Source: Opitutia bacterium
GTDB lineage: Bacteria > Verrucomicrobiota > Verrucomicrobiia > Opitutales > Seribacteraceae
Assembly: GCA_018695085.1 (NCBI GenBank)
Contig: JABHOU010000189.1
Location: 1 to 37,851, forward strand
Direction of reading: 5' to 3'
DNA: 37,851 nt
The notes under the pieces were generated by a model. It saw only the letters and a program-made list of their open reading frames with translations, was not told the DNA's origin and made no database searches. A program made the translations under genes and the position numbers. Shown piece by piece: positions 3,575 to 36,203 of this stretch. How positions within the stretch are numbered: position 1 is the stretch's first letter; every line of letters starts with the position of its first letter.

Positions 3575-3578
3575 GGAA

Positions 3579-7700: not shown

Positions 7701-10700
7701 AGCTTAAGCCAATATTGGGATTTGGGTCTAAAATCATGGCCTCCAGAAAGAGAGAGTCATTTATGAGATAAGGAGTTTCGTTAAGGCCTCTTAGTGAAAT
7801 TTTAGGAGCATCCCCACTGCCGGTAGTTGAGGTAACGGTAATGGCGTTACTCATAACGCCATTGCCGCTATTGTCTCGAATCTCAGCGTGAAGAGTATGC
7901 ATTTCAGAGCGACTTACATTCCATTCAGTCGAAAACGTGCGCTTAATAGTATCCGTAACTGAGCTAACATTATGCTCAGAAAGAAGGTGGCCGTTAATGT
8001 AGAAGTCCAAGCTTTGAACCGAGCCATCGGGATCACTTCCGGTGGCATAGATGCGAGCCATCGAGGTGGAAGTCAAAGCCAGCCCGGCATTGGGGAAAAC
8101 AAACTCCACCTCCGGAGGTAAAGATCCTCCCATTTCCACAATTTTAATGCTAATCGGCCATGAAAAGCTTTCTTGATTTGTGTTATCAATGGCTCGAGCG
8201 GTGATTTCATGGACCCCGGGTATGGTCGGAGTCCATGTAAAAGAATAGCGAGAAGTTGTTCCGTCTCTAGTAACGACACCACCGCCGCCGCCACCGCCGC
8301 CGCCAAACTGCCCAATTTGAGTGGCGCCGGAATAAATAAAGAGTTGGCTTATTTCGCCGTCAGGATCTGATGCATTGAAAACGAAATGAACAGGTATGCC
8401 CGCAGTGTAAGTGGGCAAGTGAGTTTCTTCGTCTTGGCTTTCTTTAGTGCGCGGAACCATCATCTCGACTGTCGGTACTTTTCCTCTTTCGACGTTTATG
8501 GACAAAGTCTTGGTGCGAGCACTTAAACCATCGATCGAATTACCGTGTACGCGAATATCGAACAACCCCAAGGATGGAGGATCCCAAAGTAAAGAATAGT
8601 GAGGGTATGCGCCGCCGACTTGCAACGCGGTATCCTCGGTTCCATTCACAAATACTTGAAAACCATTGTTATTGATCAGTGTATCAGGATCATTCGCTTG
8701 AATGCCTATGAACACAGCTTCTCCCAAATTGGCTGTCATGGGTTTTATTGCTGTATTTAGACCTCCTTTAAAAACAAACTTGGCAGCGGGCGAAAATTTA
8801 CCGCCGCCCGTAAGCATAACTTTGTTTATCTGTCCCGAAGAATTATTGTCTTCGTCTTTTGGCGAAATAGTGACCGTACCGATAGGGGAAGTCACATCCC
8901 CATCTACAATGTAAAGCTCCGGAGCGGAATGATATCCTTTGCCTCGGAAAAGTATGTTGGATGCGTTAACCTCGCCATGGGCAAGGATATTGTTTTCATC
9001 AAGAAGCCCTGTAAGTGAAAGATCGGCAAAGTTCAAGGGTTCGAACTCAAACGACGGCGGTATCGATTCGAAGACCTCTCGCTTGATTACCGAGGAAACT
9101 TTTTTGTTGCCATGGTTGTCCCTTGCCACGGCATACAGTTCGTATACGCCTGCAGATCCCGGACTCCAAATCGCCTCATAGGGCTCATAAGCATCCTGTC
9201 CGCCCGGAATGGGAACTCCATTTTCATAAAAAGTAACGACGGAAACATAGCCATCCGCATCACTCGCTTCAGCCGTCAATGGAATTTCATTAAAATTAAA
9301 TCCTCCTCGAAAAGTTACCGGCGTCCCGGGAGTATACCCATTCCCTTGATTCGTTATTGTAACAGCGGTAACTGATTCATTGGCAATCGTGGCCGTAGCC
9401 GTCATCCCCGTACCGCCTCCCTGAATTTCAACTTGAGGAGCTGACTTGTAACCGGAACCGCCGTCAAGAACTTGCACACGAAAAGTAACACCATCTAGTC
9501 GTAATCTCAATACTGCTTCTGCGGATTCACCGGAGGGCTTGAGTACAGGAAATCCACCTGAAACATTTATCGTTATGTTAGAATCATTGGGATCCTTGAT
9601 TCCATGATTTTTCATGTTTAAAGATTCAATGGTGCCGAAATTTGGTTTAGTCGAATCGGTTTGCACCATCGCCGATACATCTGCTCCATTGGCACCGGTA
9701 ATCGCAATCTCAGGAGAAGAGGCATAACCAACGCCACCATGCTTAATTACAGGAACAATAGTATTATTATGATCTCCGCCCCAAGTTGCGGTAATTTCTG
9801 CATTACGTACGGGATATGCAAGTGCCACATCGGGCAAGCTTCCACTACCACTGGTACTGCTCAAAGTGCTAAAGTTGGACATAACGGAATTGCCACTGTT
9901 GTCCATTCCCACAGCAACAACGGAATGAACACCATGACCTGATCCAGCAGTCCATAAGGTACTGTAAGGGAAATTTTTCTGACCTTTACCAGCAGCTGCC
10001 GTAATGGGTTCACCATAAGGTACGCCATTTACATAAAATCGGACCCATTCCAATTTGCCGTCCGGGTCACTGGCTGATGCGTAAAATCGCATTTCAGATC
10101 CTCCGGTAATAGCCTCTCCATTTGTCGGAGAAGTCAAACTAACAGAAGGAATCTGAGATGGAGAACCCGGAATAATAATGACATGATGACCAGCGGAGTG
10201 AAAAGCGGATTTCATTCCATCATCAATCGCTTCTGCACTGATCTCGTATACGCCGGGAGCATCTGGTATCCATTCCAATATAAAATGATCAGTTCCGGGA
10301 ATTTTTCGGGCGCTGTTAATGACTGTAGCATCCAGAGTCGCATCAATAACAGCACCACCACCAGGCGTTATTGTAACGGTGGGGGGCGTGGTATATCCAG
10401 TTCCTGGGTTAGTTAACGTTACACCATTTATGACACCATTTGCATTTACCGTTACGGTTCCGGCGGCACCTGAGCCACCCCCTCCCGCAAAACCTAGTTG
10501 AGGCGGAGCTTGTGGGTCAAAACCAGCTCCGGGATTAACGATTGTCAATCCCCCAAGGTTCCCGTTCGTAGAGGCTCCCAGAATTGATCCGTTTCCATAA
10601 AACCTGACTTCCGTAACCTGCCCATCGACATCCTTCCCCTCAGCTTCGAGAATGACTCGCGACCCCAAAACGAATTGAAAAGGGTAGTCAGATGATAGGT

Positions 10701-13700
10701 GCCTTCCCTCAGAAAAAATAACTCGAGGAACCTCTTGATATCCACTGCCATTTTGATCCAACGTAACAGAGATTCCACCGATTCTTAAATGCTCTGCCTT
10801 GATTTGAGCACTGAAGTTTCCGTCCCCACTTGCAGGGTCGGCGCTAATTGTGGACGCATTGTAGTCCGATCCCGCAGAAACCACCTCCACAGAAGCGATC
10901 ACCCCATTTTTAACGGTCGCCCCTGCTTCATTCGCATCAAAACCGTTGCCTGTTTTACTGTCTACAACCACCCGAAGATAATTAGGCACATAACTGTTTC
11001 CACCTGAAAAAATCTGAATTTCAGTAACGGTTCCATTTTCGTCTACTCCTAGACCAGCCAAGGCTCCAGTCCCCTTAGTATTGGTGTTTTGAAGGTCAAA
11101 TATTTTGACTATGTCATCCTTGGTGTAGCCCATTCCCCCAGTCAGTACCGGTATGGAGGTCAATACTCCGTTTACGATATGAGGCTTCATCTCCAAACCG
11201 CTTCCATTTGAGTCATCCACGCTAAGTTTAACCTCATCCGTGTAGCCAGAACCACCATTGAGAACGGTTACTACTGAAACAGCGTTAGGATTAAGGACAC
11301 TGGCAGTCGCTTGCGCCCCTATTCCACCACCACCGGCAATAATAACATTCGGTTCCTCAATGTAATCGGAACCCATATCATCCATTACGATTCTTGCAAC
11401 TTGGCCAAAATGTGGATCATTCGGGTCGTTCGTCGAGTGCAAAACCGCATGAGCGCGAGCAATTTTTTTAGTGTGCTCGCCTGGTTGCAGGAGAGTAACT
11501 GTAGGGGGGGAATTTGGCGTGGCTTGTGATTCGATATGTTCGGGCCTCACCTCAAAAGTTATAGGATCGGAAATAACATAATGATCACCAAAATCACCAA
11601 CATTTCCAACGGCCATGGCATGAAACTGGTAAACTCCAGCCTCGGGAGGCATCCAAGTTGTTTCGAACTCTTCCATCTCGCTGTTGAGAATAGGGGTTCC
11701 ATTGGTCACGCGCTCCAAGGTCACGCCATTGGCAAAAAACTGCACGCGGGAAACCCCGTTGCCGAAACCAAAAAAGCCACCGCCACCATTACCCTTAGCA
11801 AGAGCCCGCAACCTCATACCCTGCGCCGATATAGAAACCGTATCTAGAGACACTTCGGGCCTAGGGGAAGTATTGTTTGCGTTCGTTCCCGCCAAGCTTT
11901 CTGTTCGGACAACGTTCCCGTCATTGTCCATAACCTCGACCTTAAAAATAAAGTCCTCGGCAAGAGTTACTTTCCAGCGAAAAGCATATACGTCGCCAAA
12001 ACGATATTCTGGCTCGCCCAATAAAGTATCATTATAGAAGAAACGAATATATTCCAAGTGCCCATCGGGGTCGTAAGCTCTAACATTCACAAAAAGTTCG
12101 GAGCCAACGCTGTAATCCGGAAAAGTATCTCCTCCCACGCCACCGGGAACCGGCTCCTCTAAAATCGCGATCGGCAGAAGACCCGTAGATTCATTTGTTA
12201 TCTCAATAATTGACGTGCTTAAATTAGTTTCAAGAGAAGTTTCTCCTAAGCTATTGGTGGCAGTCGCACTAACATGGTAGGTGCCCGGACGGTCGGGCGT
12301 CCACTTAAACAGAAACCTTCCCTCTCGACTAAAAACACCTGGGGCAGGAAAGGTTTGCGTGGCAATGCCTTCTTGATTGTTAACGAAAACATTTATACTT
12401 TCAACTGTTCCCTGAGTAGTTTCGGCAATGAAGCTTATTTCTACCTCGTTCCCTAGCAAAAACTTATTTCTGCTCTGATCGACTGGGTCAGGGTCAGAGA
12501 GAATAACCGTCACTTCAGAGGTCGTCTTTAACGCCTCAGTCTTTCGGTCATGCACGTAGATATCTCGAAATCCGTTTGTATCCGCGGGGTTTTGGTTGGT
12601 TGCTCCAAATAAAAGTCCACCTGCGCCTTGAACATCCGAGCTGTAAGAAATGAAACGGCCATTACCGGTTATCGAGGGAAACCGGTTGGAGGGCATAGTC
12701 GTCGTCGCGTTCGTTCTGTAATTTACCGGCAAACCAAATTTACTGGTGGTGATTCTTTCGTTTAAACTCTTTGAGTGGTCATACAGGTAGATATCGTCAG
12801 TAACTTGATCTTTGTTGACCAAGAGAGCAGGTCGCCCATTGGACATCATGCCCGAACTTATGTTTGTGTTGATTTCAGAAAATCCGAATATCACGGGATC
12901 AGGAGCAATGATAGGGGTGGCTCGGGTAAAACCCGTTCCGCCGACAAGCATGTTGCTCTGCATTGTCGCGGTAAGAGACGATGGGTTTCCAGAGGTCGCT
13001 CTTCCTCGAAGGGCGCTAACAACCAAAAAGTCCGCGCCAAGGGTTTTCTCGGATACCTGAAGACCCTCATATAGGGGGGAATTGGTATCGGTTGGCCAAA
13101 GACCTTCGAGCGCTTGCGCAACCGCATCGCGCACACCAACAACCGACAGTCCAGAAATGCCGATCGAATTGCCCACGACATTAGCCGAAAATGCATCAAA
13201 AGTTAAAGTTTCCGTTTTCAAGTGGTCAGAAACTGTCAAGGTAGCACCATGCAGACCCACCGTACTCTGAACCACAAGCCTTATGCGTTGCTCCAGAAAA
13301 ACTTCCCCATTGGGACCCAAATGGATGCGGTCGGGGTTTACCTTTGCATCGGGTTTTCCATCATTGTCCAAATCCGCACCATCTCCATCAATAATTATGC
13401 CTGCACCCTGATTGAGAACTTGTTCTTTAGTGTAACCGAGACCTTCGTCGTCCATTTCCAAACGAAGAATGGTCCCGCCTCCAGATCGATTGTTTCCAAT
13501 ACCACTGGTGACCGGGTGGCTGATAGACTTTAATTGAAAGCCCGTTCCAGCCCTAGGGTTATCAATGGATATCATTGTTTGCGAATAGTCGTAGTTGTTA
13601 CCCGAATTAAAAATGGATATGTCGGCAATGCGTCCGTAATTATCAACGTGATATAGGGCAAGCGCCCCAGATCCGCTACCGGAAAGATCCTCGATTCGAA

Positions 13701-16308
13701 GCTGTCCGTCTTGATATCCTTCTCCAGAATTCTGAACCTCGATTTCACCAATTGGCCCTCCAAGTATAGCTCTTGCTCTTGCCATCCTAAAAGTTGCATT
13801 CGGAAAAACCCTACGGTCTTCTCGCTCTATGTTTGCAGCCAAGAGATTACTAGCCTGTGTAGAATACGCCAACAAGCCTCCATCGTAATTGAGGGTCGGT
13901 TCACGACTTCCCTTGTCACCTCCTACCGAAAGAACACTTTCACTGGCTCGATTGACTACAGTCTTGTTGTCTATCAATGACTGCACGGGCACTCTATAAA
14001 CGTCGCCTTCCGGATGCGTAAGGCGAGCCTCAAGAATGGCAAGGCGAGTGGGCCCAATATCGGCAGGGTCGGGCACCACGGTTACCTTGGGCGCTCTATA
14101 CAGATTACCCGGCAATAATACAGAAACACCTATAATCTCACCATAAGAGTTAATTTGAGCCTCCGCAGTCGCCCCTGAACCCAAACCGCTCGTATCGGTT
14201 ATGGCAATGGATGGAGTCAGAGTATAGCCAACTCCTGCATCCTTAATTTCGATTGTCGAAATACCTTTCTCTGTAACAAGGTTTTTAGCGGAAGAAGTAT
14301 AGGCAATGATCTTCCCGTCGCCACTTATGGCGGGCTCTGATGAAGCGCCTTCGATAGTTCTTGCTTGCCCTGAGGTCACGTTCACCAAGTACATAGCCGA
14401 GGTATTTCGCTCCCAAAGAAAAATATCAGAATACTCGTTGTTATCTAAATCTGTTGAACTATCTATGTTCGATAGGGTGAAATTGTCGGCATAGGAGGTG
14501 AATACAACGCGATTCCCATCCTCGCTGATATCCGCGTCAATGCTTGCAAAGTTACCGATGGCTGTAATGGGAGATAATTTATTTAAGTTTGTTCCATTTG
14601 AATCCCAAACAAAGATATTGCTACCCGAAAAAGATTGCGGGGCCTCGCTAAGGTTTGACGCCAAGGATTCAAAAGCCACAACTGAACCGTCTCCATTGAT
14701 AGAAGGATAATAACTGCCACCATCGGGATTGCCGAAGTCAGTACTTGTCGACAGACGAAATATTCGATTGGCCACTCGATCAAAAAGAAAAACATCCGCA
14801 TGCTCATTAGTATCACCGGGAACCAGATTCGACGCACTCGAATGAAAAGCTAGGAATTTTCCATCTGCACTTACGCTGGGAGCAAAGCTGGATCCATTGG
14901 CAGCAGTGTTATTAAAACTCCTGGTCACCTGAGTTTCTTGGTTGGAGAGTGTATCCAGTAGAAAAATGTTAACTACTCCGCCAACGGAAGATTCGAAAGC
15001 AACGTATTGGCCCGTTTGATCATAAGAAGGGCGAGAGCTCCAATTGTTTCTGCTCTCACTAACAGACGTAGTATCCCCAGCATTATTTGATCGTAATGTA
15101 ATGGAAGGAGTAGGTTGAGAGACAAATGTTTGGCCACCCAAATTTGCCACAATGTAAAAATCTCCTTCGAAACTGTCGGGCAACCTCTGAATCCAGTCAA
15201 GAGTTACGGTCTCATTAGGCCGCAGGCCTAAGCCCAGCCCACTTCCTCCGAGGTCAAATTCACGCAAGATGAAGTCGTCCCCATCTATTCCGCTTTGGTC
15301 TCGAGAGAGCGCAACGGTTGCCTGAAAAGCATCACCTGCTTGAACGGGACCCGTTCCGGCATTGCGAACGGCAAAACGAAAATGAGCAGGTGCCATCCCT
15401 TGAAAAGTTCCGGTATCACTGGAAAAACTTCCGTTGACGACCTGCATGTTTGCAGTTGGACTTACGTTGAACTGAACCGTTGCTTGGTTGTTATTTTCCG
15501 TATGCTCGATTAAAATATCAGGAGAACCGGCATCTACGTTCACCGTCACGTCATAGGTGCCATTGCCATCTATGGGAATGGATAATTCGTCGATCGTAAA
15601 ATCGATCGTATCCCCGCTTGCAAAAGGAAAAGGGTTGAGGGCGTTTTGATTCGGCAAAACAATCGATTGCTTATCCACCTCTTCTCCATCCTGCAGCAAC
15701 CTTGCCTCTACCCGGAAGTAGACGTTCGGTTGGGTTTGAACTCGCCCGACATTAGCTACGGTACCAGAAACGCTGACATTTCGGCCGGGTAGAGCCGTTG
15801 CGGGTCCCACTAAGTTGTTTATTGTTACATCCGGAATGACTAGGGAAAAGGTAGAGGTATCGCGGTTATTGGTTCCATTAACGTCTCTGGGCGTAATCAC
15901 ATTCGTGATGACAGTCCAGCTAGCGTTGTTGCTCCACTGGGCGGCTTGAGCCCATGGCATTCGAAGGTTTACCGTGTTATCCGGGGTGCTTTGATTAATG
16001 GACAGTCCGGTTAAGATTTGCCCGGTTCTGCTTAATGAAGGTACGGCTTGACCATCCGGGCCATTGACCTCAACAGACCAAGTAATATTTTCCCCGGCGA
16101 AGACTTCTTCCGTTCCGTCATTGAAAATGCGAAAGGTTACGTCGAAAGTGCCTCCTGCAAAAACTTCCGTGAAAGCATCGGTGTCGATCCTGAGATCGGG
16201 AACAAGTACTTGGCCCCTGAGAGTGGAGTGACCCACGAAAAAAGTTAGGCACAGTAAGATTAGTCGAGCCATGAGGGCGGATTGACTATTGGCATTCATC
16301 ATTATCAC
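4735..16308 (-). CDS. Giant secreted multidomain surface protein (up to 3857 aa): CARDB/Ig-like N-terminal modules, PD40 beta-propeller blades, many Ig-like modules, GxGY repeats, TSP3-like Ca-binding loop, Q/N/G/F low-complexity domain, Trp-rich C-terminal module
   Basis: An uninterrupted 11.6-kb ORF. The track start at 16308 is a GTG. ATG codons follow at 16302, 16299 and 16272, and the last gives a classic signal peptide MARLILLCLTFFVGHSTLRG. Recurrent motifs are SxDG(K/R)xxAFxS (PD40) and ASDPDGxxxxVxFYxNG...WxPxxxGxYxxxAxAxDNxGN (Ig-like modules). Confidence 0.9.
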   Translation of the reverse strand: MIMMNANSQSALMARLILLCLTFFVGHSTLRGQVLVPDLRIDTDAFTEVFAGGTFDVTFRIFNDGTEEVFAGENITWSVEVNGPDGQAVPSLSRTGQILTGLSINQSTPDNTVNLRMPWAQAAQWSNNASWTVITNVITPRDVNGTNNRDTSTFSLVIPDVTINNLVGPATALPGRNVSVSGTVANVGRVQTQPNVYFRVEARLLQDGEEVDKQSIVLPNQNALNPFPFASGDTIDFTIDELSIPIDGNGTYDVTVNVDAGSPDILIEHTENNNQATVQFNVSPTANMQVVNGSFSSDTGTFQGMAPAHFRFAVRNAGTGPVQAGDAFQATVALSRDQSGIDGDDFILREFDLGGSGLGLGLRPNETVTLDWIQRLPDSFEGDFYIVANLGGQTFVSQPTPSITLRSNNAGDTTSVSESRNNWSSRPSYDQTGQYVAFESSVGGVVNIFLLDTLSNQETQVTRSFNNTAANGSSFAPSVSADGKFLAFHSSASNLVPGDTNEHADVFLFDRVANRIFRLSTSTDFGNPDGGSYYPSINGDGSVVAFESLASNLSEAPQSFSGSNIFVWDSNGTNLNKLSPITAIGNFASIDADISEDGNRVVFTSYADNFTLSNIDSSTDLDNNEYSDIFLWERNTSAMYLVNVTSGQARTIEGASSEPAISGDGKIIAYTSSAKNLVTEKGISTIEIKDAGVGYTLTPSIAITDTSGLGSGATAEAQINSYGEIIGVSVLLPGNLYRAPKVTVVPDPADIGPTRLAILEARLTHPEGDVYRVPVQSLIDNKTVVNRASESVLSVGGDKGSREPTLNYDGGLLAYSTQASNLLAANIEREDRRVFPNATFRMARARAILGGPIGEIEVQNSGEGYQDGQLRIEDLSGSGSGALALYHVDNYGRIADISIFNSGNNYDYSQTMISIDNPRAGTGFQLKSISHPVTSGIGNNRSGGGTILRLEMDDEGLGYTKEQVLNQGAGIIIDGDGADLDNDGKPDAKVNPDRIHLGPNGEVFLEQRIRLVVQSTVGLHGATLTVSDHLKTETLTFDAFSANVVGNSIGISGLSVVGVRDAVAQALEGLWPTDTNSPLYEGLQVSEKTLGADFLVVSALRGRATSGNPSSLTATMQSNMLVGGTGFTRATPIIAPDPVIFGFSEINTNISSGMMSNGRPALLVNKDQVTDDIYLYDHSKSLNERITTSKFGLPVNYRTNATTTMPSNRFPSITGNGRFISYSSDVQGAGGLLFGATNQNPADTNGFRDIYVHDRKTEALKTTSEVTVILSDPDPVDQSRNKFLLGNEVEISFIAETTQGTVESINVFVNNQEGIATQTFPAPGVFSREGRFLFKWTPDRPGTYHVSATATNSLGETSLETNLSTSIIEITNESTGLLPIAILEEPVPGGVGGDTFPDYSVGSELFVNVRAYDPDGHLEYIRFFYNDTLLGEPEYRFGDVYAFRWKVTLAEDFIFKVEVMDNDGNVVRTESLAGTNANNTSPRPEVSLDTVSISAQGMRLRALAKGNGGGGFFGFGNGVSRVQFFANGVTLERVTNGTPILNSEMEEFETTWMPPEAGVYQFHAMAVGNVGDFGDHYVISDPITFEVRPEHIESQATPNSPPTVTLLQPGEHTKKIARAHAVLHSTNDPNDPHFGQVARIVMDDMGSDYIEEPNVIIAGGGGIGAQATASVLNPNAVSVVTVLNGGSGYTDEVKLSVDDSNGSGLEMKPHIVNGVLTSIPVLTGGMGYTKDDIVKIFDLQNTNTKGTGALAGLGVDENGTVTEIQIFSGGNSYVPNYLRVVVDSKTGNGFDANEAGATVKNGVIASVEVVSAGSDYNASTISADPASGDGNFSAQIKAEHLRIGGISVTLDQNGSGYQEVPRVIFSEGRHLSSDYPFQFVLGSRVILEAEGKDVDGQVTEVRFYGNGSILGASTNGNLGGLTIVNPGAGFDPQAPPQLGFAGGGGSGAAGTVTVNANGVINGVTLTNPGTGYTTPPTVTITPGGGAVIDATLDATVINSARKIPGTDHFILEWIPDAPGVYEISAEAIDDGMKSAFHSAGHHVIIIPGSPSQIPSVSLTSPTNGEAITGGSEMRFYASASDPDGKLEWVRFYVNGVPYGEPITAAAGKGQKNFPYSTLWTAGSGHGVHSVVAVGMDNSGNSVMSNFSTLSSTSGSGSLPDVALAYPVRNAEITATWGGDHNNTIVPVIKHGGVGYASSPEIAITGANGADVSAMVQTDSTKPNFGTIESLNMKNHGIKDPNDSNITINVSGGFPVLKPSGESAEAVLRLRLDGVTFRVQVLDGGSGYKSAPQVEIQGGGTGMTATATIANESVTAVTITNQGNGYTPGTPVTFRGGFNFNEIPLTAEASDADGYVSVVTFYENGVPIPGGQDAYEPYEAIWSPGSAGVYELYAVARDNHGNKKVSSVIKREVFESIPPSFEFEPLNFADLSLTGLLDENNILAHGEVNASNILFRGKGYHSAPELYIVDGDVTSPIGTVTISPKDEDNNSSGQINKVMLTGGGKFSPAAKFVFKGGLNTAIKPMTANLGEAVFIGIQANDPDTLINNNGFQVFVNGTEDTALQVGGAYPHYSLLWDPPSLGLFDIRVHGNSIDGLSARTKTLSINVERGKVPTVEMMVPRTKESQDEETHLPTYTAGIPVHFVFNASDPDGEISQLFIYSGATQIGQFGGGGGGGGGVVTRDGTTSRYSFTWTPTIPGVHEITARAIDNTNQESFSWPISIKIVEMGGSLPPEVEFVFPNAGLALTSTSMARIYATGSDPDGSVQSLDFYINGHLLSEHNVSSVTDTIKRTFSTEWNVSRSEMHTLHAEIRDNSGNGVMSNAITVTSTTGSGDAPKISLRGLNETPYLINDSLFLEAMILDPNPNIGLSFGVQWVGFLVNGVSVDTGGAPDTLPPYYTTWTPTQPGIYEILAYARDEEGNLFFSAPSKVTVVSETSEILAFTSLNRPLSGNAQLGALTISSTNGNVRRSGFGASVVGNTNISGLSTSFMTDLVPGQIIRFGRVDSATGQYVTTENTFKVTKILSTDTLEIEEKLTNDKGEPLAPYLNDFNLLQQWLEVQVVEVYRAGSWIFLAADQTANTPNVASVRFYVGGILVSTDTTWPFSSGFIPADAGSYSIRAIATDQNGIEKLAEKRIEVLPQIGELPDGAYSHYPSLTRQGATTRGSRLVFVPAIVDLDDGVNRVEFYLNGQFYHVDDKAPFYCIFSPDSSTSLFETDRFWELTAVAVDNSDNRISLTDRGTVAGSVQLPEATMISPLPETEYTVGQVMNITVEVKGVNLPRVIGPDATAGNNPNAAQQARQMALFANGAEIGLANETSFGSGRFTFEWSTKQEVAGSDDKVDLFGAVVMQNETIGGMTYTPSIVSSPITITLTKRNPLGEMKSAVSQFYKDLLFYEPSEQEVELSLDYIGGGTHGEYIFNDTAFLNWVSNISQRQSFQDLVSAVAGYYITMGYWPSKNLMDDALQTYSAIPNYGTDGSGDTDGDGYSTNQEVLWKTSDTNATDFPDNAFRLGSYLDMTFSSLPFLRTHGAIGPFNGDENEFNRRSFVTLLFGNKHGLEPTLQQQVQGSYRIKSLDPQQAQQNNQQQQMIQQMMMYSMMGGGFGGGGRGNNNNNNNNNMFGGGFGGGMFGGGGGMFGGGGNNQPAPATPNYKNGDGAVLFTTHMVLEEQVDGLDLLWEAPKKQHEFQTAAAMLALWQDNLVSLDQAEINKYSSMPMASQIQAMMKDHRYRSRFANMSISKDAEEHQTAKDWKYLPWLGFYSDRTFPWIYHTGGDDSANGLGWVYVQAPTSKEAWFYISGIGWMWSSESIWNNEKLTANGSLLPLFDSSSGKWTAYRLGSDPAKPGRLFYDYDLKEYEKR
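4738..5067 (-). other. Trp-rich C-terminal module of the 3857-aa protein (110 aa)
   Basis: Sequence DWKYLPWLGFYSDRTFPWIYHTGGDDSANGLGWVYVQAPTSKEAWFYISGIGWMWSSESIW... It aligns by eye with the last 93 aa of the 4390-aa protein. The shared pattern is W(L/F)GxF..(P/S)W(I/V)(Y/F)H..LGW(V/L)YV....WF(Y/W)....W(M/W)W(S)S. Confidence 0.7.
5386..5589 (-). repeat. Low-complexity Q/N/M then Gly-Phe/Asn domain (aa 3574-3641 of the 3857-aa protein)
   Basis: Translation: DPQQAQQNNQQQQMIQQMMMYSMMGGGFGGGGRGNNNNNNNNNMFGGGFGGGMFGGGGGMFGGGGNNQ. The DNA shows imperfect tandem CCGCC(A)AACAT units. The alternative-frame ORFs listed here (5304-5507, 5370-5672, 5386-5664) are artefacts of this low complexity. Confidence 0.9.
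5461..5487 (-). repeat. Coding trinucleotide microsatellite ATT(GTT)7ATT, encoding Asn9
   Basis: Read directly from the + strand: attgttgttgttgttgttgttgttatt. It is in frame with the giant ORF (AAT (AAC)7 AAT on the coding strand). Confidence 0.95.
6200..12470 (-). repeat. Array of at least 10 diverged Ig-like beta-sandwich modules, interleaved with GxGY repeat blocks
   Basis: A recurring module of about 90-100 aa. Examples: VRAYDPDGHLEYIRFFYNDTLLG...VEVMDNDGN; ASASDPDGKLEWVRFYVNGVPYG...AVGMDNSGN; AEASDADGYVSVVTFYENGVPI...AVARDNHGN; NASDPDGEISQLFIYSG...ARAIDNTNQ; TGSDPDGSVQSLDFYINGH...AEIRDNSGN; VASVRFYVGG...AIATDQNGI; VNRVEFYLNGQ...AVAVDNSDN. The similarity is at protein level only and the DNA copies are diverged. 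Boundaries are approximate. Confidence 0.65.
10350..11390 (-). repeat. Densest block of the GxGY / GGGGxGA tandem repeat in the 3857-aa protein
   Basis: Units such as MGSDYIEEPNVIIAGGGGIGAQATASVLNPNAVSVVTVLNGGSGYTDEVKLSV, GGMGYTKDDIVKIF, GGNSYVPNYLRVVV, AGSDYNAS, NGSGYQEVPRVIF and PGAGFDPQAPPQLGFAGGGGSGAAGTVTVNANGVINGVTLTNPGTGYTTPPTVTITPGGG. More copies lie at about 9310-9470, 9680-9760, 13590-13750 and 14080-14250. Confidence 0.7.
14290..15045 (-). repeat. PD40 / TolB-like beta-propeller blade repeats
   Basis: Repeats: SRPSYDQTGQYVAFESS..NIFLLD; FAPSVSADGKFLAFHSSASNLVPGDTNEHADVFLFD; YYPSINGDGSVVAFESLASNL..NIFVWD; ISEDGNRVVFTSYADNF..DIFLWE; SEPAISGDGKIIAYTSSAKNLV. Isolated extra blades lie near 13840-13900 and 12550-12690. 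Confidence 0.7.
16210..16272 (-). other. Predicted Sec signal peptide of the 3857-aa protein
   Basis: MARLILLCLTFFVGHSTLRGQ has a positively charged n-region, a hydrophobic core and a small-residue region. The cleavage site is not determined. Confidence 0.5.
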
Positions 16309-16454: not shown

Positions 16455-19400
16455 TCATTTAGTTTTCTCCTTCCAGCTATTCTCGTCAAAATCAAAGTAT
16501 CTCGGATGAACGGCTTTTGGATCCCAATACCCCCAACCCGAGCCCGTTTGCCGAACAAGATAAAAGTGGGGGAAGAAGGTTGGATTCGACCACCACCACA
16601 CCTCTAGCTCTACATCCCAAAACCAAAACCCTCCCGTTCTGTCTGAAACAACGTAAAGCCAACCAAGACTCTCATGAAATACCCATGAAGAGCCGTTGGT
16701 AAAAAAGTCTCCAAACCATTCGGATTGACGCCAGTTTTGAGCCCCATCCACTTCTGCGGCGCTCAATCCAAGAGCATTGCCGCGTTTCACGGTAACGGTT
16801 GCTGTCCCGTAAAGGCCGTTTCCGTCGGCCAAACGCAACGCGACGACCATGGCTTCACCGACGGACAGGTGGTCAGCCTCGTCCTCATCCGCCACCAAGA
16901 GTTGTCCTTGCTCGCTCAAGGAAAAAGCGGCGACCCCATCCTTGTCAGTATCAGGATTGCCCGAACTAATGGAAAAGCCTACGGTATCTCCATCCGCATC
17001 GGCCCCATGAAGATTAAGGATGGTTACTCCCTGAATCCACTGGTCGGCAGGCAGGGCGATCTCCGCATTGGACGCCGTGGGTGGGAAGATGTTAACGCTC
17101 CCATTGTAGTCGGACGTTTGCCCGGAAAGCAATTCCTTGCTTTTGGCGGTTGCCAAGGTGGCGGGTGTTCCTCCTTCGAGCCGCAACTTCTCGTATCCCT
17201 GCACTATGCTATCTTCAACAACCGCTTGAATCTTTGCCAATTCGACTGCAAGCGTATCAGGAGCAGTCCCTTTAGCAAGAGACTCAACGATCATTCCATC
17301 GGCCGCCACGGACATTTGGGCCGCTCCGGCCAAATCTTCGGCGGTAACACCGGCAACACCCAAAGTCGTTACCACGCTTGTAAGAACATTCTGCATTTCG
17401 CTCGCATCGCCAAGGGGAGAAGCTGCACCACTGGCAATTTTGGCGGCAACTTCAGAAATCAATTGAGCAGAGATCGATTTTCCCGAAGCATTTCCGTCCG
17501 AGGCGTATTTCACGAAGGCCGCCCCCTGCCGAATTGCATTGGCGACCCGAGCGCTTGCGGCAAGAGCTTGACTAGCATTGGCATCTCCCTCCGCGGCTGC
17601 AGCAATGGGATCATAATTGAACAAGTCCAAGGAAGCTGACAACCCCAGTGCCTCCGCCACCTTGGATTTAGCGTCTTCCCGAGAGAGCCCTTGCTCGACA
17701 AAGGCCGAGGAAAGAGTGCTAAGGGGATTTACGACCGTTGAGTTGGCATCAGCTACGTAAAGTCCCGTAAAAGGTTCGAGTGTCGAAGAATCAGTTCCCC
17801 CGTAAACGAGTATTCTACCCTCTTCAGGATCTATGGCTCCGTTTTTATTGGCATCTGCCTTCAAAAACTCTTCCTCCGTGAATGAAAAGGAAAATGCACC
17901 GCTTTCATCGGTAAGCACTGGGCTCGACAGATCGTGAGTACCATTTCCGTCAATATCGAAAACAACGCTTGCCCCAACCAGATATCCATCCATCGCCTTG
18001 CCTGCGATGGTGTAGTTCCAGTCTGCTACGTAAATGGTTCGCTTGGTGGCAATCTCGTTGCCGGAATCATCGACTACCGAATAGTTAAGTTCATAAGTTC
18101 CGGTAACGTTTTCATCTAAAGATCCTGAAACCATCACCCTGTTGAAAAGATCGCCGTCCACGGTATCGAGAGCCGAAAAACCGGGCTCAACGAAGGGTTC
18201 GCCTTTGTTCAGGTTCATGGACGGACTGCCAAAGAGTAACAGATCTGGAGCAATGGTATCTACAATTTCCACTTTTCTCGTGGCAATCGCTTGGTTTCCT
18301 GCGATGTCTTGAACAATATAATTCAAATTGTATAACTGCAAAACGGTTCCCACGTCACTAGAACCCCAACCCAAAGGGGGAGCCAAAGTCGCTAGCTCGA
18401 CGCCCACTTTGTGCGTCAAGTTGCCGTCGACGACGTCAATGGCCGAATAGCCCGGATCTTCCCATTCCGTGCCCGCTTCATAAGTCACTAAATCGCCAGC
18501 AAACAATGAAATCTCCGGCGCTTTGCTGTCGCGAATTACAATTGTCCGAGTAACGGTACCAGTGCTACCCGCAGAATCGGCAGCCGTGTAGATCAAGTGG
18601 TACACTCCTGGTGGCGCGAGTGCGGAAACCTTTAGGGTTCCGCTCCCTTGGGTTGCGTTCAAGTCATCGATGGTAATTATTCCAGTCGCATTTCCATCTT
18701 CGCTAACGGTTTTAGGATCAATTACCCCATCATAATCATCGCTGGCCAAGGGCTTCAGATGAAAAACTTCATCCCCGGGATTAAGATAGACGGCTTTTTC
18801 TTTACCGTCACCTCCAATGACCGATTCAGCCATTGGCAACAAGGTGAGGAGGGGCGGCGGATCTTTAACGACAAAATTTACCTGCGAACGATCCTCGGAG
18901 AGACTTCTGTCCCACGAGCCGGAATAGTTGCCCACCGGCTCACCGTAATCGTAAGCTTTGTTGCTTGGGTCACCACTTTCACCACGATCAATAAAAGCAT
19001 GTATGTTGTAAGTTTTTCCTGTTGGCAAATTCTTGAAAAAATAAAAGGTTGCGGACGAGGGGGTGAGAGGTTTGTCACCTCCTAAATAGGAACTGACGTC
19101 TTTGTTCTCCTCAAAAACCGGCACCCCCTCCTCCTCGGGAATGGCCAAAACATAGAGGGTGCCGTTCATCTCTCCTTGAAAGTAAACCGTTCCGGATATG
19201 CCGGCTCCACCCTTTTCCGGGTTTAGAGGATCCAGACCAAAACTCACTTCAAGCCCATCGGGCCAGCCATCCCCATCGGTATCAGGATTTTTCGGATTAG
19301 TTCCGGTATTGTTTGCGTCAACGTATGTGTTCGTATTGGTTTCGACGCCATCGAGCAAGCCATCGGCATCGGTGTCGGCATTATTGGGGTCGGTTCTTAA

Positions 19401-22400
19401 GGTCGTTTCGCTTCCGTCGCCAAGACCATCCCCGTCGGTGTCGGCCTTCCAGGGATTGGTACGATAGCTAAACTCCAAGGAGTTGTTCAGTCCGTCGGTA
19501 TCGTTATCGTCATCCCAATCGATAAAACCTTCCCGAACCGTATCGAAATGGAGGTCCGACCACAGTTCCTTTTCCGTCAGTTGAGCCCTATGGGATGCTT
19601 CCAGACGCACCTTTTGCTCAAGCAAACCCAAAGTCGCCTTCAGCCAAAGCCCACCGCCGACCAAGGCGGTCAAGTTGGCATCGGTTCCGGTCTGGCCTTC
19701 CGGGCGGGACAAACGAATGCCGGAAATCACCGAATAACCGCTCCCGCCCTCAACCACTTCGATTGCCTTGACCGAGCCGGTAGAGTTGACTTCGGAAATG
19801 CGAGCGAAGGCACCCGAACCATCGCCAAAGATTTGAACAAGGGTGGAGTTGTCGTCCGAATAACCCGTGCCTCCGCCATCCACTCGAACAGATGCCACTT
19901 TTCCCGATCGCAGGGTGGAGCGCAATATCAAGGTCGTGGAATTACCGTCAATAGTGCTGAGAGATGCCAACTTCGTTAAGTTCCCCTCGGTCGAATTGAA
20001 GTCAAACTCTAGTTCCCACTTTACGTTATCGGTATCCAGAAGCGTACCGTTTCGATCGTAGCCCTTTGCGGTAAAGGTCATGTTCAAGTCACCCGCTACA
20101 GATGATGAAATTGGCATTTCAACCGAATTATCACCAGCCGAAGGTGAGATTATGAGGTGAGATGCGTTGGCATCCACCGCAGCCTTTCTTCCCATCCAAT
20201 AGGCATCGTCAAGCCTATCGAATAAGTAATCTTCCCTGAAGTCCAAGCCTGATATTGTGGATCCGTAAAACACCGTAAAACTATCAGCCGAATTATGGTT
20301 GGATGAATTTACATCCACAATCTGTATGTCGAGAGATCCGTCAGGATTAACGGTCGTAGAAAGATTGGGTATGCCCCTGCCGGTGTTTTGTGGATGTGGA
20401 GTAATCGAAAACACAGGTATGGTCCCCGGTCGAAAACCAACCCCGATCCCCTTTAAGTTTTTCTTCGTAGAGGTCGACTCTCCCTGACGCAATACGTCCT
20501 CCGGCCAAATGAGACTGCTCAAGCCTACGCCATTTTGGTCGGTTTCCAGCCTAAGTGAAGGAATGCCCGGGACGTAAACCACATGGGTAACGGTCGAATT
20601 GCCGTCCTCTCGGAAGGTGATTTCCTCCAAGTTGGAATCCTCCGCAAGCACGGCAGCATTGTATAACCCCGGCTCGAGGTTAGGAAACGAATAATAACCG
20701 TTGCTGTCGGTATAGGAAATCCACGCGTCGGGCAGGTACGCCCAAGAATATATGTTTTCGCCAAGAATTTCTGTCTCATGAACCCTTATCGCATCTTCAA
20801 AAGAGACACTGCCTCGTTCTTTTGAGATGCGTGAAATTGAAAGGTCTGCATCTTCAAAAGAAAAGCTCGTGATAACCCCCAAAGCCGACATCGCCCCACT
20901 TTGCCCGTTGAGCTTGCGCCAAAACTGGTCCACTTCATTTTCGGGGTCGTATTCCTTGCTCAGATTCCCAGAGACAAAAGTGGCGAGAGCTTCGTAGGCA
21001 TCCGCCCCCCACCATACGACGTCTCCCTTGTGATATTTGCCCGGTTCCCACTTGGTCACGACTCGCCAGTCGAGCGAAGGAGCCGAGTCGAGAGTATGAA
21101 TTTCTCCGCCCAATCCCTCGCGATCCCAATCCGAAAGAGAATAACTGGAGAAAGAAGGAAACGAATCGTCCACCACAACGTCCATGAAGCGCCGGTGGGA
21201 CAATGGATTATAATCGATACCCCCGTTGCGCCCGACGCTGGTCAACTTGTAGGCGTCCTCCCCTTCCAGGTTTGCACGATGAACTTCCACCACTGGGATT
21301 TCCCCGAAAACAGACCGCCACATGCCGTTGGCTTTATATGTTCCGTTGCCATCGAGAACCATTTTGCTCAACCCCTTGGTGAGGAAAGTGGTGGCGCAAG
21401 CGTCTCTGAAACTTTTGGCGTGACTGGAATTGAAATCGATGCGGATGGAAGGGGCATCGGCACCGTAACCAATGCCGTGGTCATGGATCGTGAATTCGGA
21501 AATCTGATCACCCGCGGAGTCACGAGGAATGGGCAATCCAAGATAAATACTCCCCCCGAGGGGCGATAACCTTTCGCGATATTCGTCCACGACCACCACT
21601 CTTGCCACTTCATTCAAGGCCCAAGGCCGTTCGCCAAACCCCTGTCCCGCCCCGGCGGGAAGAGTTACCGGACCAAGTTCTTCGTTCTTAAGGGCTGGGT
21701 CGTCATAAACCAACCGGACCATTTTTCCGTTGTTATTAAAAACGGGTATTACATCCACTCCCGAGCCCGTACCCATCACAAAGACCTCTGGGCAAGCGTA
21801 TCCGGCCCCGGGATTGTCAACGATTATTTCCACGATCTGCCCATTACGGAAGATTGGTGAACATTTAGCCTGAAATTCCTTATCTACGTTATATGTTGCT
21901 GAAATTTCTACGCGCGGATCAAGGTAACTATTGCCCGCCTTCTCCACAATCACTTTGACAACCCTGCCATCCACTACTTTGGCAAAGGCAGTAGCTCCCG
22001 TGCCAGTTCCCGCATTATCGGTAATCTTGACCAACGGAACATTGTGTATCATGGAAGAGGATTGGATTGGTATTTCATCAAGTGACCCGCCCAAGCGCAT
22101 GGTAACGTTGGCTTCCTTGGTCGGCTTCTGTCCCGCGTTGACCAAGACCACTTTGGGGGTGTTGTTGGCGTCTAAGTTAAAATAGCCTCGACCGCCATCC
22201 GTAACGAGGATGGCAGCGACCATTCCGCTGCCATTGTTCTCTAAAAAAGCACGTGCCCGAGCACCAATTCCTCCGCCTCCCGTAATGGAGACAAAGGGAG
22301 GTCGACTGTAGCCGGAACCGGGATCCAACAGTTCGATGGCATCCGCCGAAAGGGTTCCGTTCTCGTCCACTTTGTCGGGATTGATACGAGCTCGGGTATG

Positions 22401-25400
22401 ATTCAGGTCCCTGTAGTTCGATGGAGTCGTGTACCCGCCATGGAAGTTTACTTCAGCGGGCACGGAGTAGCCGAGCCCACCGTCCAAAATCTGTATGCGT
22501 GACAACACGTTCGTAAAAGACACACTTTTAGCATTTACTTGGCGCGCTTTGGTCGCATTCAAATCGAAATAAATCGTGGGCGGCTTCACCCAGCCGGAAC
22601 CGTAATCTTTTCTCTCGGGGTTTATGCGCATAGCCTTGACTTCGTACTTTCGGGGAGCTACGCCCCGAGCAACGTCCAGCTTGTCGGAGAGAAAGACCTC
22701 GACCACGGGCGGTTTCTCTTCAACTGGATCATCTCCGATGAAGCGCAACCACCGCTCCGGGTTGCGCAATTTCAATTGACCGTCATTGGCGTCATAGAAA
22801 ACGTCTTCGGTTCCCCAAAACCTATTGTCCGATGCCGGATAATAAACAACGTCTCCGTTATCTTTCGTCGTTATTTCCGGAAAATGCCTTAAAATGATGG
22901 TTCCGTCTTCGTTCTGATATTGGGTTCCCTCTAACATACAGAGGTTTTTTTCCTCTTCACTTAGCCCGGCGAATCCGTTTTCGGTTAGGGTATCAAAAAT
23001 GGCGTCGAGGGTGGAGTTCCTTTCGACGTCAAGGTCATAGGGTCCGTTGCCGGGCCTTCTTAAAATGAATCCATGAATAGCTTGTTCCCTCATTATGGAC
23101 TCGAATCGAGGCGGTATTGAGCCCTTGCCCCGAATACGCACGTCCCCTTCCGAAAACCCCGGATCCGAATATCCATGACCTGGATCGGTTATCAAGACCG
23201 ATTCCTCAGGATCAAGATAAAACAGGTGGCTGCCGGTGGCGTTGTCATCGGTTTTGGAACCACCGATGACAATCGTGGGGGGAGCTCGAAATCCAAAAAC
23301 ACCTTGCACCGGTCCCGGCCAAGGCGGTGAAGAATATTGGGAAGACGCAAATGGATGCGCCCATACGAAACCTCCGCCGGCTATGTATGCACTACCGTTG
23401 TCGTCGACGTATTCGACGTATCTGCGCTTGATCTCTTTGCCATCAGGCAATTGTATGTCCAAAGCCTTGCCCATGTCCTTGGTAAGCAGAACGCTTTCCA
23501 CGCCTGTCGGTTGGAGAGCGAGAACACCGTTGGCTGTTTGGCCTTCGCTATGTTCATACCTTTGCCAGACGGCGGCAGGGTAAATGTGAAGGGAGTTGTT
23601 CTTCATGAGGTTCAAGGCTTCAGGTTTCGTGTTGTTGTTCTCACGAATGGCGGAATAGGTGGAGTAGTCGGCTATTTCGGTTTTTCGATAACGAACCAAA
23701 TCGCCTTCCACATAAGTGGCGCAGGCATCCCACGGCTCCGGCTCATTGGATCCAGGAGGTGTGTCGCCCGGAGAAAAAGTTACCTTCGGGGTCTCCTTGT
23801 AGCCTGCTCCGGGGGCGGTAACTTTAACCGTTCCCACCGAATCCACGCGAGCCTCCAAAGATGCTCGAAAGACATCTTTGGCACTGGGGCGCAAATCGTA
23901 TAAAAAAGAAATTTCGGGTGCCTCAAGCACGCGATCGAAAACCCATACTTCATCTAGTTGGCCAATGAAATAATTGGTTTGGTTTGCCTCACTGGTTTGG
24001 TGGCGACCGATTGCCATATAATCTATGTTTTCAACATCGGCGAAAAAGCCACGGGGAGCGTTTTGCCCATCTGCTGCAGTACGCAAATCCACAGCTTTTC
24101 CATCGACGTAAAACAGTGAGCTCACCTCGTTAACGACAAGCAGCCCATGGTGCCAATCGTCATCGTTGAAGGTTTCTGTGGTGTAGACACGGGTTATTTC
24201 CGCTCCGCCGTTGGACACAAGGAATTGGATTTGGCCCGTATCTCGAACCATAAGTCGAAAGAAGGAATCCGGGTCATCTTTGTCAGAGGCGGCAAGAATA
24301 GTACCGTCAACGGGCGTTCCGTTCGCTAAAGATAGCGTCTTGAACCAAAAGCTCACACTGCCCGTGCTGAGGGGTGCAAAGTCTTGGGCGGCCTGTGACA
24401 GGTCGACGTATCGGGTGCCATTGAAATCGATGCCGTCGTTTGGATTGCCCGGCACTACCCCGGCGTCCAGCTCGTCGGGATCGTTCATCGGCATGTCCAT
24501 GGCGACGCCGTGTCGGTTTTGGCCGGAAAGATCGAGAAACAAATCGCCCGACAGTTGGCGAATCTCCCGAGGCTCCAAAGCCCGATCGAAGACGCTGACT
24601 TCGTCTATAAAGCCATTAAGGTATTCGGTAGTTGGGGTTTCCGTAAAAGCCTTACCTAGAATAAAGTCCGAGGCACGCCCAGAGATTTTGTTAAAGTTGC
24701 CAGCAAGAGTAAAGGTCTTGCTGGCCACAAGTTCACCCATCACATACATGGTCGCAGTCGCGGAGTCCTCGTCGAAGGCATAGGCGACGTGCGTCCATTC
24801 ACTGGCATTTAAATCACCGCCCGACAAAACAACATTGTCGGCTGAACCACTATTTTCCTCTGCTTTGTATAGAATTCCAACAAAGTCAGACGTATTCCAG
24901 TAAAGCGAAAAGGCATTCGTCCCGCTTTCTTTCTGAGAGGCTAACCCATGAAAACTGCCGTTACCGTCGGGCTTCACCCACAACGAAACGGTAAAGGAAT
25001 CGCCAAGAAATTTGTTTTTGTTAGGTGAATCGGGAGCAAGGTACTCCTCGACGGTAGAATTACCTTGAAGCCGTATGGCTCGACCTCGAATGCCCCACTC
25101 GGAGCGATCGGCGATGAAGACGCTAGCGTTCAGTTCCATGGTGGCGTTGTAATCGGTAGTTTGACCGAGAACAGGAGTGGCCCCGATATGATGATCTGAA
25201 GAAGAGGTGGAGTTCTCCTCGTCCATCGACCAATGGGCTTTCAAGCTCTGGGTAATGGGACGAAGCCAGCCCGGGGAGGGTTCCAGCATAAGCTTGTCCT
25301 TGCGGGGATAGTAATTCTGTCGGAATAAAGATTCCTCGCGATCGAAAGACCAGTAGGCAAAAGGATTGGGGGGGTACAAGGCGATCGCCAGGGTGGTGTT

Positions 25401-33408: not shown

Positions 33409-33620
33409 AACAGCTCTTTCCTGTCGGACCACATTAGCGATCAAAGGTTTCATCTACGGGCAAGTTGTAAGGAGTTAATTAAGTGGAGATCGACTCTTCG
33501 GGCTTGTTAATTCCTACCTTTTATGGAACAGTTTTAGAACTGCGGGGTCAACTTCCAAAATAGAAACCTTTTCTAAGGAAAAATGGTTTTTATGTATCCT
33601 CTGCACATTTTCAGGCACCA

Positions 33621-34934: not shown

Positions 34935-34939
34935 GAGGA

Positions 34940-36175: not shown

Positions 36176-36203
36176 CAAGACATGAGAAGCGGAAAGTTTG
36201 ACA

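Follow-up and report, generated by a model that had tools for sequence, protein, structure and literature searches.

A tryptophan-rich domain shared by two giant proteins beside a verrucomicrobial secretin cluster, a probable binding or anchoring module of exported proteins

Why should two giant proteins that otherwise differ in their domain order end in the same tryptophan-rich segment? The question is raised by a stretch of 37,851 nucleotides from an Opitutia bacterium (Verrucomicrobiota; assembly GCA_018695085.1, contig JABHOU010000189.1), the whole of which is called the window here. Two very large open reading frames (ORFs), designated giant A and giant B, lie next to each other on its minus strand. 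An earlier note on this DNA had aligned their tails by eye and proposed that the common ending was a sorting or anchoring signal. Our results indicate that the two tails are copies of one domain that is carried by many exported proteins of marine Opitutales. Rather than marking the two giants alone, this domain probably serves for binding or anchoring. The features concerned are as follows.

16455..29627, minus strand: giant A, ORF of 4390 amino acids (aa), from translation and Pfam
16458..16775, minus strand: Trp-rich module, predicted all-beta, giant A copy, residues 4285-4390 of 4390 (family hidden Markov model (HMM), independent E-value 5.9e-29)
4735..16308, minus strand: giant B, ORF of 3857 aa, from translation and Pfam
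4738..5109, minus strand: Trp-rich module, predicted all-beta, giant B copy, residues 3734-3857 of 3857 (family HMM 3.6e-25)

One domain family behind the two tails

The spans given in the earlier note were right. Positions 16458-16736 (minus strand) encode the final 93 aa of giant A, NWRQSEWFGDFFTNGSSWVFHESLGWLYVVSDRTGGFWFWDVELEVWWWSNPTFFPHFYLVRQTGSGWGYWDPKAVHPRYFDFDENSWKEKTK, and positions 4738-5067 (minus strand) encode the quoted tail of the 3857-aa giant B; the true start of the module lies about 13 aa upstream of the start assumed before, in both giants. The giant A module ends at the last codon before the stop, and the last 90 aa of this protein contain 11 Trp, compared with a Trp content of 1.6% over the whole protein. 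With composition-adjusted statistics, the two 131-aa C-terminal segments matched each other at E=7e-6 with 21% identity (BLASTP). A family HMM built from independent relatives matched the two tails at 5.9e-29 and 3.6e-25, and these were its only matches in the six-frame translation of the window; the pattern LGW[VLIF][YFW] was also confined to the two tails in that translation. All five skeleton motifs that had been recognized by eye fall on columns conserved in the family (W16, G18, W27, H30, G34, W35, W47, W56, W58). The tails of giants A and B are thus one homologous module. With identity of only about 21-26% between them, and with closer orthologues of each elsewhere, the two copies are old paralogues rather than a recent copy, and the module is ancient in both giants.

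A likeness by chance, or through the composition of Trp-rich sequence, might be argued from the pairwise identity of merely 21%, and we give it virtually no credence. The composition-adjusted E-value of 7e-6 and the family HMM values (6e-29 and 4e-25, rounded) stand against it, hundreds of relatives share the same conserved columns, and both copies are predicted with the same strand order. Chance is excluded because a profile of just the two tails, of the kind that the earlier note had suggested building, recovered a real family: among 1.84 billion representative proteins it found 272 representatives at E<=1e-3, 9 of which reached E<=1e-10. A refined HMM of 108 positions then recovered 150 of the 150 best representatives, with domain E-values from 1e-13 to 1e-32. 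By these profile statistics, the module is a real domain family of about 105 residues that was previously undescribed. The family consensus reads GW..S.WFG.F......WIYH..LGWLY.........W.W...LGW.WT....YP.LY......W.Y..........FYD.....W, and the motifs of the module follow in the order W..S.WFG.F, PWIYH..LGWLYV, WFW...LGW.WT, YP.LY.....W.Y and FYDY....W. Two columns (W11 and W77) are invariant, and ten others (W16, G18, W27, H30, G34, W35, W47, W56, W58, P65) are at least 90% conserved.

Searches against known families were negative. Neither giant tail matched Pfam or NCBIfam at E<=10, and neither matched a PDB sequence. When 64 family members were scanned singly, there was no credible Pfam or NCBIfam match, and the NCBIfam and C-terminal domain (CTD) models gave none at E<=1. 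The Pfam matches to OCRE and Kelch (E>=0.005; 1-6 of the 64 members) were rejected as compositional, and Foldseek gave no support for them. A word-indexed homologue search found nothing with the giant A tail alone and just 17 small unnamed proteins with the 64-sequence alignment, and the names returned by cluster look-ups of family members were all "hypothetical protein". The literature yielded no description of the Trp-rich domain, nor of giants beside a verrucomicrobial secretin. The earlier judgement by eye that the tail is not a PEP-CTERM, an LPXTG signal, a type IX secretion system (T9SS) CTD or an autotransporter barrel agrees with the absence of any Pfam or NCBIfam match at E<=10 and of a terminal hydrophobic segment in either tail.

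Structure prediction, which had also been proposed as a check, gave a confident all-beta AlphaFold2 model. With the 64-sequence family alignment as input, the giant A copy was modelled with pLDDT 95.7 and pTM 0.85, and its 11 strands read as five consecutive hairpins. The giant B copy (pLDDT 81.8) has 10 strands in the strand order of the A copy, with insertions in two loops. Foldseek comparison of both models with PDB and BFVD gave nothing better than E=0.9 and TM 0.37, and the top names (beta-trefoil designs, polo-box, TCP/G-box, Rhs; E>=0.9, TM<=0.37) were discarded. The predicted fold is apparently unrepresented among solved structures. The five-hairpin repeat is a description and not a demonstrated duplication, because the self-comparison with hhalign matched positions 29-60 to positions 67-99 at merely E=0.08. 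In the strands, aromatic residues occupy alternate positions (W-x-Y or W-x-W, on one face) with aliphatic residues between them (I, L, F or V on the other face). Judged from this periodicity alone, such strands in a small beta-sandwich would expose one aromatic face, the candidate ligand surface.

Hosts, carriers and placement of the module

A degenerate DNA pattern, W[IV][YF]H..LGW.[YF], searched in one genome per GTDB species, gave at least 118 loci. The following counts of loci and hosts are those among the matches listed. The HMM confirmed the domain in 116 of 118 pattern loci; L013 and L030 were chance matches of the DNA pattern without the domain. The loci come from about 73 assemblies by a hand count of contig accession prefixes. 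Nearly all hosts are marine Opitutales, Opitutia and Puniceicoccaceae, with Ca. Seribacter sulfatis and Ca. Chordibacter forsetii among them, and the marine Opitutales are known as polysaccharide specialists. The other hosts are one Chthoniobacterales metagenome-assembled genome (MAG) and six Syntrophobacteraceae or "Deltaproteobacteria" MAGs. About 30 assemblies gave two to five loci each under this narrow pattern, indicating that the family is multi-copy per genome, and in many assemblies the copies within one genome were found at dispersed loci.

The partner domains in 70 carriers were all extracytoplasmic. The commonest were the divergent InlB B-repeat (16) and cadherin (13), and further partners in Opitutales included Big_9, Big_7, TSP3, He_PIG, FGE-sulfatase-like, cyclophilin, FKBP, GH10, peptidase S8, ice-binding-like and DUF3179 domains. 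Signal peptides passed a crude hydrophobicity test in 38 of 56 complete ORFs, with many clear examples. In line with the earlier expectation, the carriers are therefore Sec-exported proteins, and the motif is not scattered at random over cytoplasmic ones. The idea that it would occur only on very large proteins did not hold: carriers ranged from <300 aa to >4500 aa, and complete carriers of 270-900 aa were common, so the module is not tied to giant size. In Syntrophobacteraceae it is carried by secreted hydrolases, namely a phosphoesterase, a papain-like protease with Big_3_5, and a sedolisin. In the Syntrophobacteraceae and "Deltaproteobacteria" loci (L005, L007, L016, L025, L059, L079, L110, L115, L116), the module was located at the exact C-terminus of the hydrolase. 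These copies could be the result of inter-phylum horizontal transfer or of mis-binning.

The earlier note had also asked whether the module is always C-terminal, which was not the case. Its position was counted in genomic ORFs with a real stop codon, among the loci listed. The module ended <=12 aa from the stop in 88 of 114 ORFs (77%), 13-60 aa from it in 15, about 122 aa from it in 5 and further away in 6. Similarly, it lay <=12 aa from the C-terminus in 110 of the best 150 representatives. Several proteins with other arrangements are real full-length proteins and not fragments: P0023 (572 aa; the same length recurs on contigs of 1-5 Mb) has a signal peptide, the module and then DUF3179, P0136 (444 aa) has the module just behind the signal peptide and then a cyclophilin, and P0106 (518 aa; contigs up to 2.9 Mb) contains two tandem modules. 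Further non-terminal copies were internal or directly behind the signal peptide. Placement is strongly biased to the termini, and the C-terminus is not obligatory.

In a recurrent subclass, an extension of about 120 aa after the module forms the true C-terminus. It consists of an InlB-B-repeat-like domain and a conserved helix, LS.EEKK.A..ELL..G.S..G. This subclass includes the proteins P0025, P0052, P0057, P0058, P0067, P0088, P0102, P0104 and P0121 and the loci L010, L027, L029, L039 and L099.

The giants and the neighbouring secretin cluster

Both giants lie within a series of minus-strand genes that includes a secretin.

29704..33453, minus strand: secretin of 1249 aa, Amuc_1098-related (Pfam Secretin 1.2e-36; NCBIfam Amuc_1098_fam 5e-104)
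33621..37745, minus strand: three upstream genes, for a 437-aa, a 412-aa and a PilM-like protein (Pfam, NCBIfam)
3579-4712 and 2450-3676, minus strand: two GT4 glycosyltransferase genes directly downstream of giant B (Pfam)

The secretin is directly upstream of giant A, with a gap of 76 nt. In Akkermansia muciniphila, Amuc_1098/PilQ is a secretin abundant in the outer membrane (PMC4960237). The secretin of the window scored 349 with Amuc_1098_fam against an equivalog cut-off of 750, and the PilM-like protein matched Amuc_1101_fam at 8.6e-70 with a score of 236 against an equivalog cut-off of 650. The 412-aa protein showed a weak Amuc_1100-family match, and the 437-aa protein had no family match. 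Judged by these scores, the secretin and the PilM-like protein are related to the Amuc_1098-type cluster and are not equivalogs of its members.

The arrangement recurs in other genomes. Secretin orthologues (62-96% identity) were found via the secretin C-terminus at 80 marine metagenome loci; in 47 of the 48 loci with at least 1.5 kb of sequence downstream of the secretin, the next gene was a giant A orthologue. The giant A ORFs in these loci run off the contig at up to >3300 aa, and the three genes upstream of the secretin were also conserved; no relatives were found when metagenomes were scanned with the N-terminus of giant A. In L020, L055, L076 and L066, the N-terminus of giant B comes next after the tail of giant A. 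Behind the tail of giant B, at least 7-9 Opitutales MAGs have GT4, GT4, a thioredoxin-like gene and a 326-aa gene, according to tblastn synteny. No minus-strand terminator was found between the cluster genes. By the conserved order of secretin, giant A, giant B and GT4 genes, both giants, with their modules, are ancient conserved members of an operon-like array. The whole conserved order in marine Opitutales reads PilM-like, 412 aa, 437 aa, secretin, giant A, giant B, GT4, GT4, thioredoxin-like, as seen in the loci L122-L201, L014, L020, L040, L041, L045, L054 and L055, and further in L061, L075, L076, L078 and L093.

The link between the module and the secretin cluster, which the earlier note had put forward, stood for the two giants and not for the family. 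Both giants are conserved neighbours of the cluster, whereas the other roughly 110 module loci among the matches listed had no secretin within each 8-kb stretch, and the two carriers viewed in a wider context were located among housekeeping genes. From their position, the giants may be cargo or parts of an Akkermansia-type "pilus" machine. Possible tasks of the GT4 pair are glycosylation of the giants and synthesis of an envelope glycan that matters to the module.

Outside the module, the two giants differ. Giant A contains PKD, Laminin_G_3 and Bact_surface_Ig-like domains before the module. Its residues 720-730 (about 27435-27470, minus strand) form an intact metzincin motif, HELGHNFGFQH, inside weak Reprolysin-like Pfam matches, and an active zinc protease domain may be predicted from this motif. 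At the N-terminus of giant A (29480-29627, minus strand) and of its orthologues in L122-L201, a basic stretch is followed by a hydrophobic helix of about 20 aa and then by charged residues. No obvious AXA cleavage site was found in these N-termini, and the helix may stay in place as an uncleaved signal anchor. In giant B, a classical signal peptide is combined with CARDB, PKD, Big_7 and Y_Y_Y domains. The listed start of giant B is a GTG (VIMMNANS...; 16302-16308, minus strand) followed by two in-frame ATGs, one of which is probably the true start. Near its C-terminus, at residues ~3573-3657 (about 5338-5592, minus strand), a Q/N-rich stretch is followed by G/N/F-rich low-complexity sequence, GGGFGGGGRGNNNNNNNNNMFGGGFGGGMFGGGGGMFGGGG. 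After this low-complexity linker there is a conserved pre-module region, ...QIQAMMKD.RYR.RF..SISKDAE..., which giant B has in common with its B-type relatives P0004, P0006, P0008 and P0012.

Possible roles of the module and known systems

The module is a non-catalytic domain that is combined promiscuously with exported proteins, mostly at a terminus. Since its carriers are functionally unrelated, they are more likely to share a location than a substrate, and so broad a range of carriers is more in keeping with a localisation or anchor module than with one for a particular substrate. A binding module is also favoured because the domain works at either end of a protein and in tandem, like SLH, LysM and choline-binding anchors. 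Non-terminal and tandem placement is typical of binding modules and unseen for obligate C-terminal sorting tags. Thus, the proposal of a sorting signal in the form of a strict terminal tag is weakened by carriers in which the module is not C-terminal, which are not giant, or which are not next to a secretin. The anchoring and glycan-binding options of the earlier note fit better than such a tag, although the function is still inferential.

Among these options, we rank first the retention of carriers on the envelope of the producing cell by binding of an envelope polymer, a reading that is plausible and that we hold tentatively. The module would hold exported proteins at their destination as a non-catalytic binding domain, most likely by attaching non-covalently to a glycan in the envelope of the cell itself. 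The giants and the smaller module-bearing enzymes would then be displayed on the cell and not released. Several points weigh against retention. The conserved Trp may simply form the core of the domain, as the exposure of the Trp residues, His30 and Thr59 is deduced from strand periodicity only. The 77% terminal bias and the position of the giants right after the secretin are equally expected of a secretion-recognition domain, and the non-terminal copies are compatible with a secretion role because type II-like systems recognise folded domains. Furthermore, the periplasmic-type enzymes among the carriers (peptidyl-prolyl isomerases, PPIases) would also fit a ligand in the periplasm rather than on the surface.

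The module might instead be aimed at external polysaccharides of algae or particles, as a lectin or carbohydrate-binding module (CBM) targeting adhesins and enzymes to food particles. This is possible, and we consider it rather doubtful. The domain is rich in aromatic residues and has invariant polar residues (H30, T/S59 and the D of FYDY), it occurs in marine Opitutales (Ca. Seribacter sulfatis and Ca. Chordibacter forsetii among others), which are known as polysaccharide specialists, GH10 and FGE-sulfatase-like domains occur among the carriers, and free placement and tandem copies are typical of CBMs. However, most partners are not carbohydrate-active enzymes (CAZymes) but proteases, phosphoesterases, PPIases and cadherin or Ig repeats, and none of the CBMs and lectins in PDB matched the module in structure. 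We regard as unlikely that the module is a secretion or sorting domain, a folded feature recognised by the secretin machine (Amuc_1098-type, similar to type II secretion systems and type IV pili) or by another outer-membrane pathway. Such a role would explain why the module ends <=12 aa from the stop in most cases (88 of 114 ORFs among the loci listed; 110 of the best 150 representatives). The many carriers per genome also agree with it, as does their resemblance to the mixed T9SS cargo repertoire of giant adhesin-like proteins and assorted hydrolases. The gene after the secretin is giant A in 47 of 48 loci, giant B comes after giant A, and no minus-strand terminator was found between the genes. 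Nevertheless, about a quarter of the copies are non-terminal (behind a signal peptide, in tandem, or with the extension of about 120 aa made of InlB-B-repeat and helix), the other carriers are not near any secretin, and the module is also present in Syntrophobacteraceae MAGs.

A more specific form of this idea, to which we give still less weight, is that the Trp-rich domain would be the cargo-recognition domain of an unrecognised secretin-dependent pathway for the export and attachment of surface proteins in Verrucomicrobiota, with the Amuc_1098-type machine as the translocon and the giants as flagship cargo. In either form, its function would correspond to that of the T9SS CTD of Bacteroidota. 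The domain might also be a protein-protein or structural element, used for oligomerisation or capping and joining carriers together or to an outer-membrane partner. Both faces of its strands are hydrophobic and 6 of the 64 members gave weak matches to the aromatic peptide-binding OCRE fold, but the OCRE and Kelch matches (E>=0.005) were not reproduced by Foldseek and no partner gene was consistently adjacent; we judge this improbable. Retention on the cell's own envelope remains our preferred reading.

Giant adhesin-like proteins and many secreted enzymes have one lineage-specific domain in common, which labels them as a set that shares one destination. The family HMM provides a computational handle on the surface and secreted proteome of these mostly uncultured bacteria, and marine Opitutales are abundant polysaccharide degraders. 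The confidently predicted fold without a solved relative is a good structural target. If the module were tied to the conserved secretin cluster, this would mean a new export route in the PVC group and a function for the Akkermansia-type "pilus" cluster.

The module failed every known-family test that was applied (T9SS CTD, PEP-CTERM, LPXTG, GlyGly-CTERM, autotransporter, choline-binding, PPC), and its likeness to these systems is one of behaviour. A close parallel in use is the T9SS CTD of Bacteroidota (Por_Secre_tail, TIGR04183/PF18962), which is likewise beta-rich, about 80-100 aa long and C-terminal on dozens of exported proteins per genome, with carriers from small hydrolases up to giant adhesins. 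However, the module has no sequence or fold match to T9SS CTDs (type A, TIGR04183/PF18962; type B, TIGR04131) and is not strictly terminal, and its model has 11 strands in contrast to the seven-stranded Ig-like beta-sandwich of the CTD, no structure of which was returned by Foldseek. Its hosts, Verrucomicrobiota and Syntrophobacteraceae, lie outside the FCB group; the machine encoded nearby is a secretin, and T9SS genes were not observed. To our knowledge, marine Opitutales lack a T9SS. PEP-CTERM, LPXTG and GlyGly-CTERM signals are composed of a motif, a hydrophobic segment and a basic tail, whereas the module tails end in ...RYFDFDENSWKEKTK and ...LFYDYDLKEYEKR without a hydrophobic segment, and NCBIfam gave no match to these signals in the tails. 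The autotransporter barrel (PF03797) has 12 strands and about 250-300 aa; no Pfam match to it was found in either whole giant, and the module has about 105 aa.

The choline-binding repeats (CW_binding_1, PF01473) and the clostridial CROPs resemble the module in their repeated aromatic beta-hairpins, each about 20 aa long and bearing G-W and W-x-Y motifs, and they act as non-covalent anchors to an envelope polymer from either terminus. In contrast to them, the module is a fixed compact unit of about 105 aa and not an open-ended array, its hosts are diderms, and no Pfam or Foldseek match to them was obtained. SLH, LysM and SH3b/GW domains follow the same logic of a promiscuous, non-catalytic, terminal and sometimes tandem module of unrelated exoproteins, but the module is unrelated to them in sequence and predicted fold. 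CBMs are also small aromatic-rich beta domains, freely placed on secreted proteins of polysaccharide degraders; the module differs from them in having no fold relative in PDB, no Pfam CBM match and mostly carriers that are not CAZymes. The PPC domain (PF04151) had no Pfam match in the tails or in the protease-bearing carriers. For the neighbouring genes, the comparison is with the type IV pilus-like cluster Amuc_1098-1102 of Akkermansia, with which the cluster in the window has secretin and PilM-like matches in common. The scores in the window are far below the equivalog cut-offs, and here the cluster is followed by two giant module-bearing proteins. By its behaviour, the module is like the terminal modules that serve for anchoring, sorting or binding in general, and it is largely specific to marine Opitutales.

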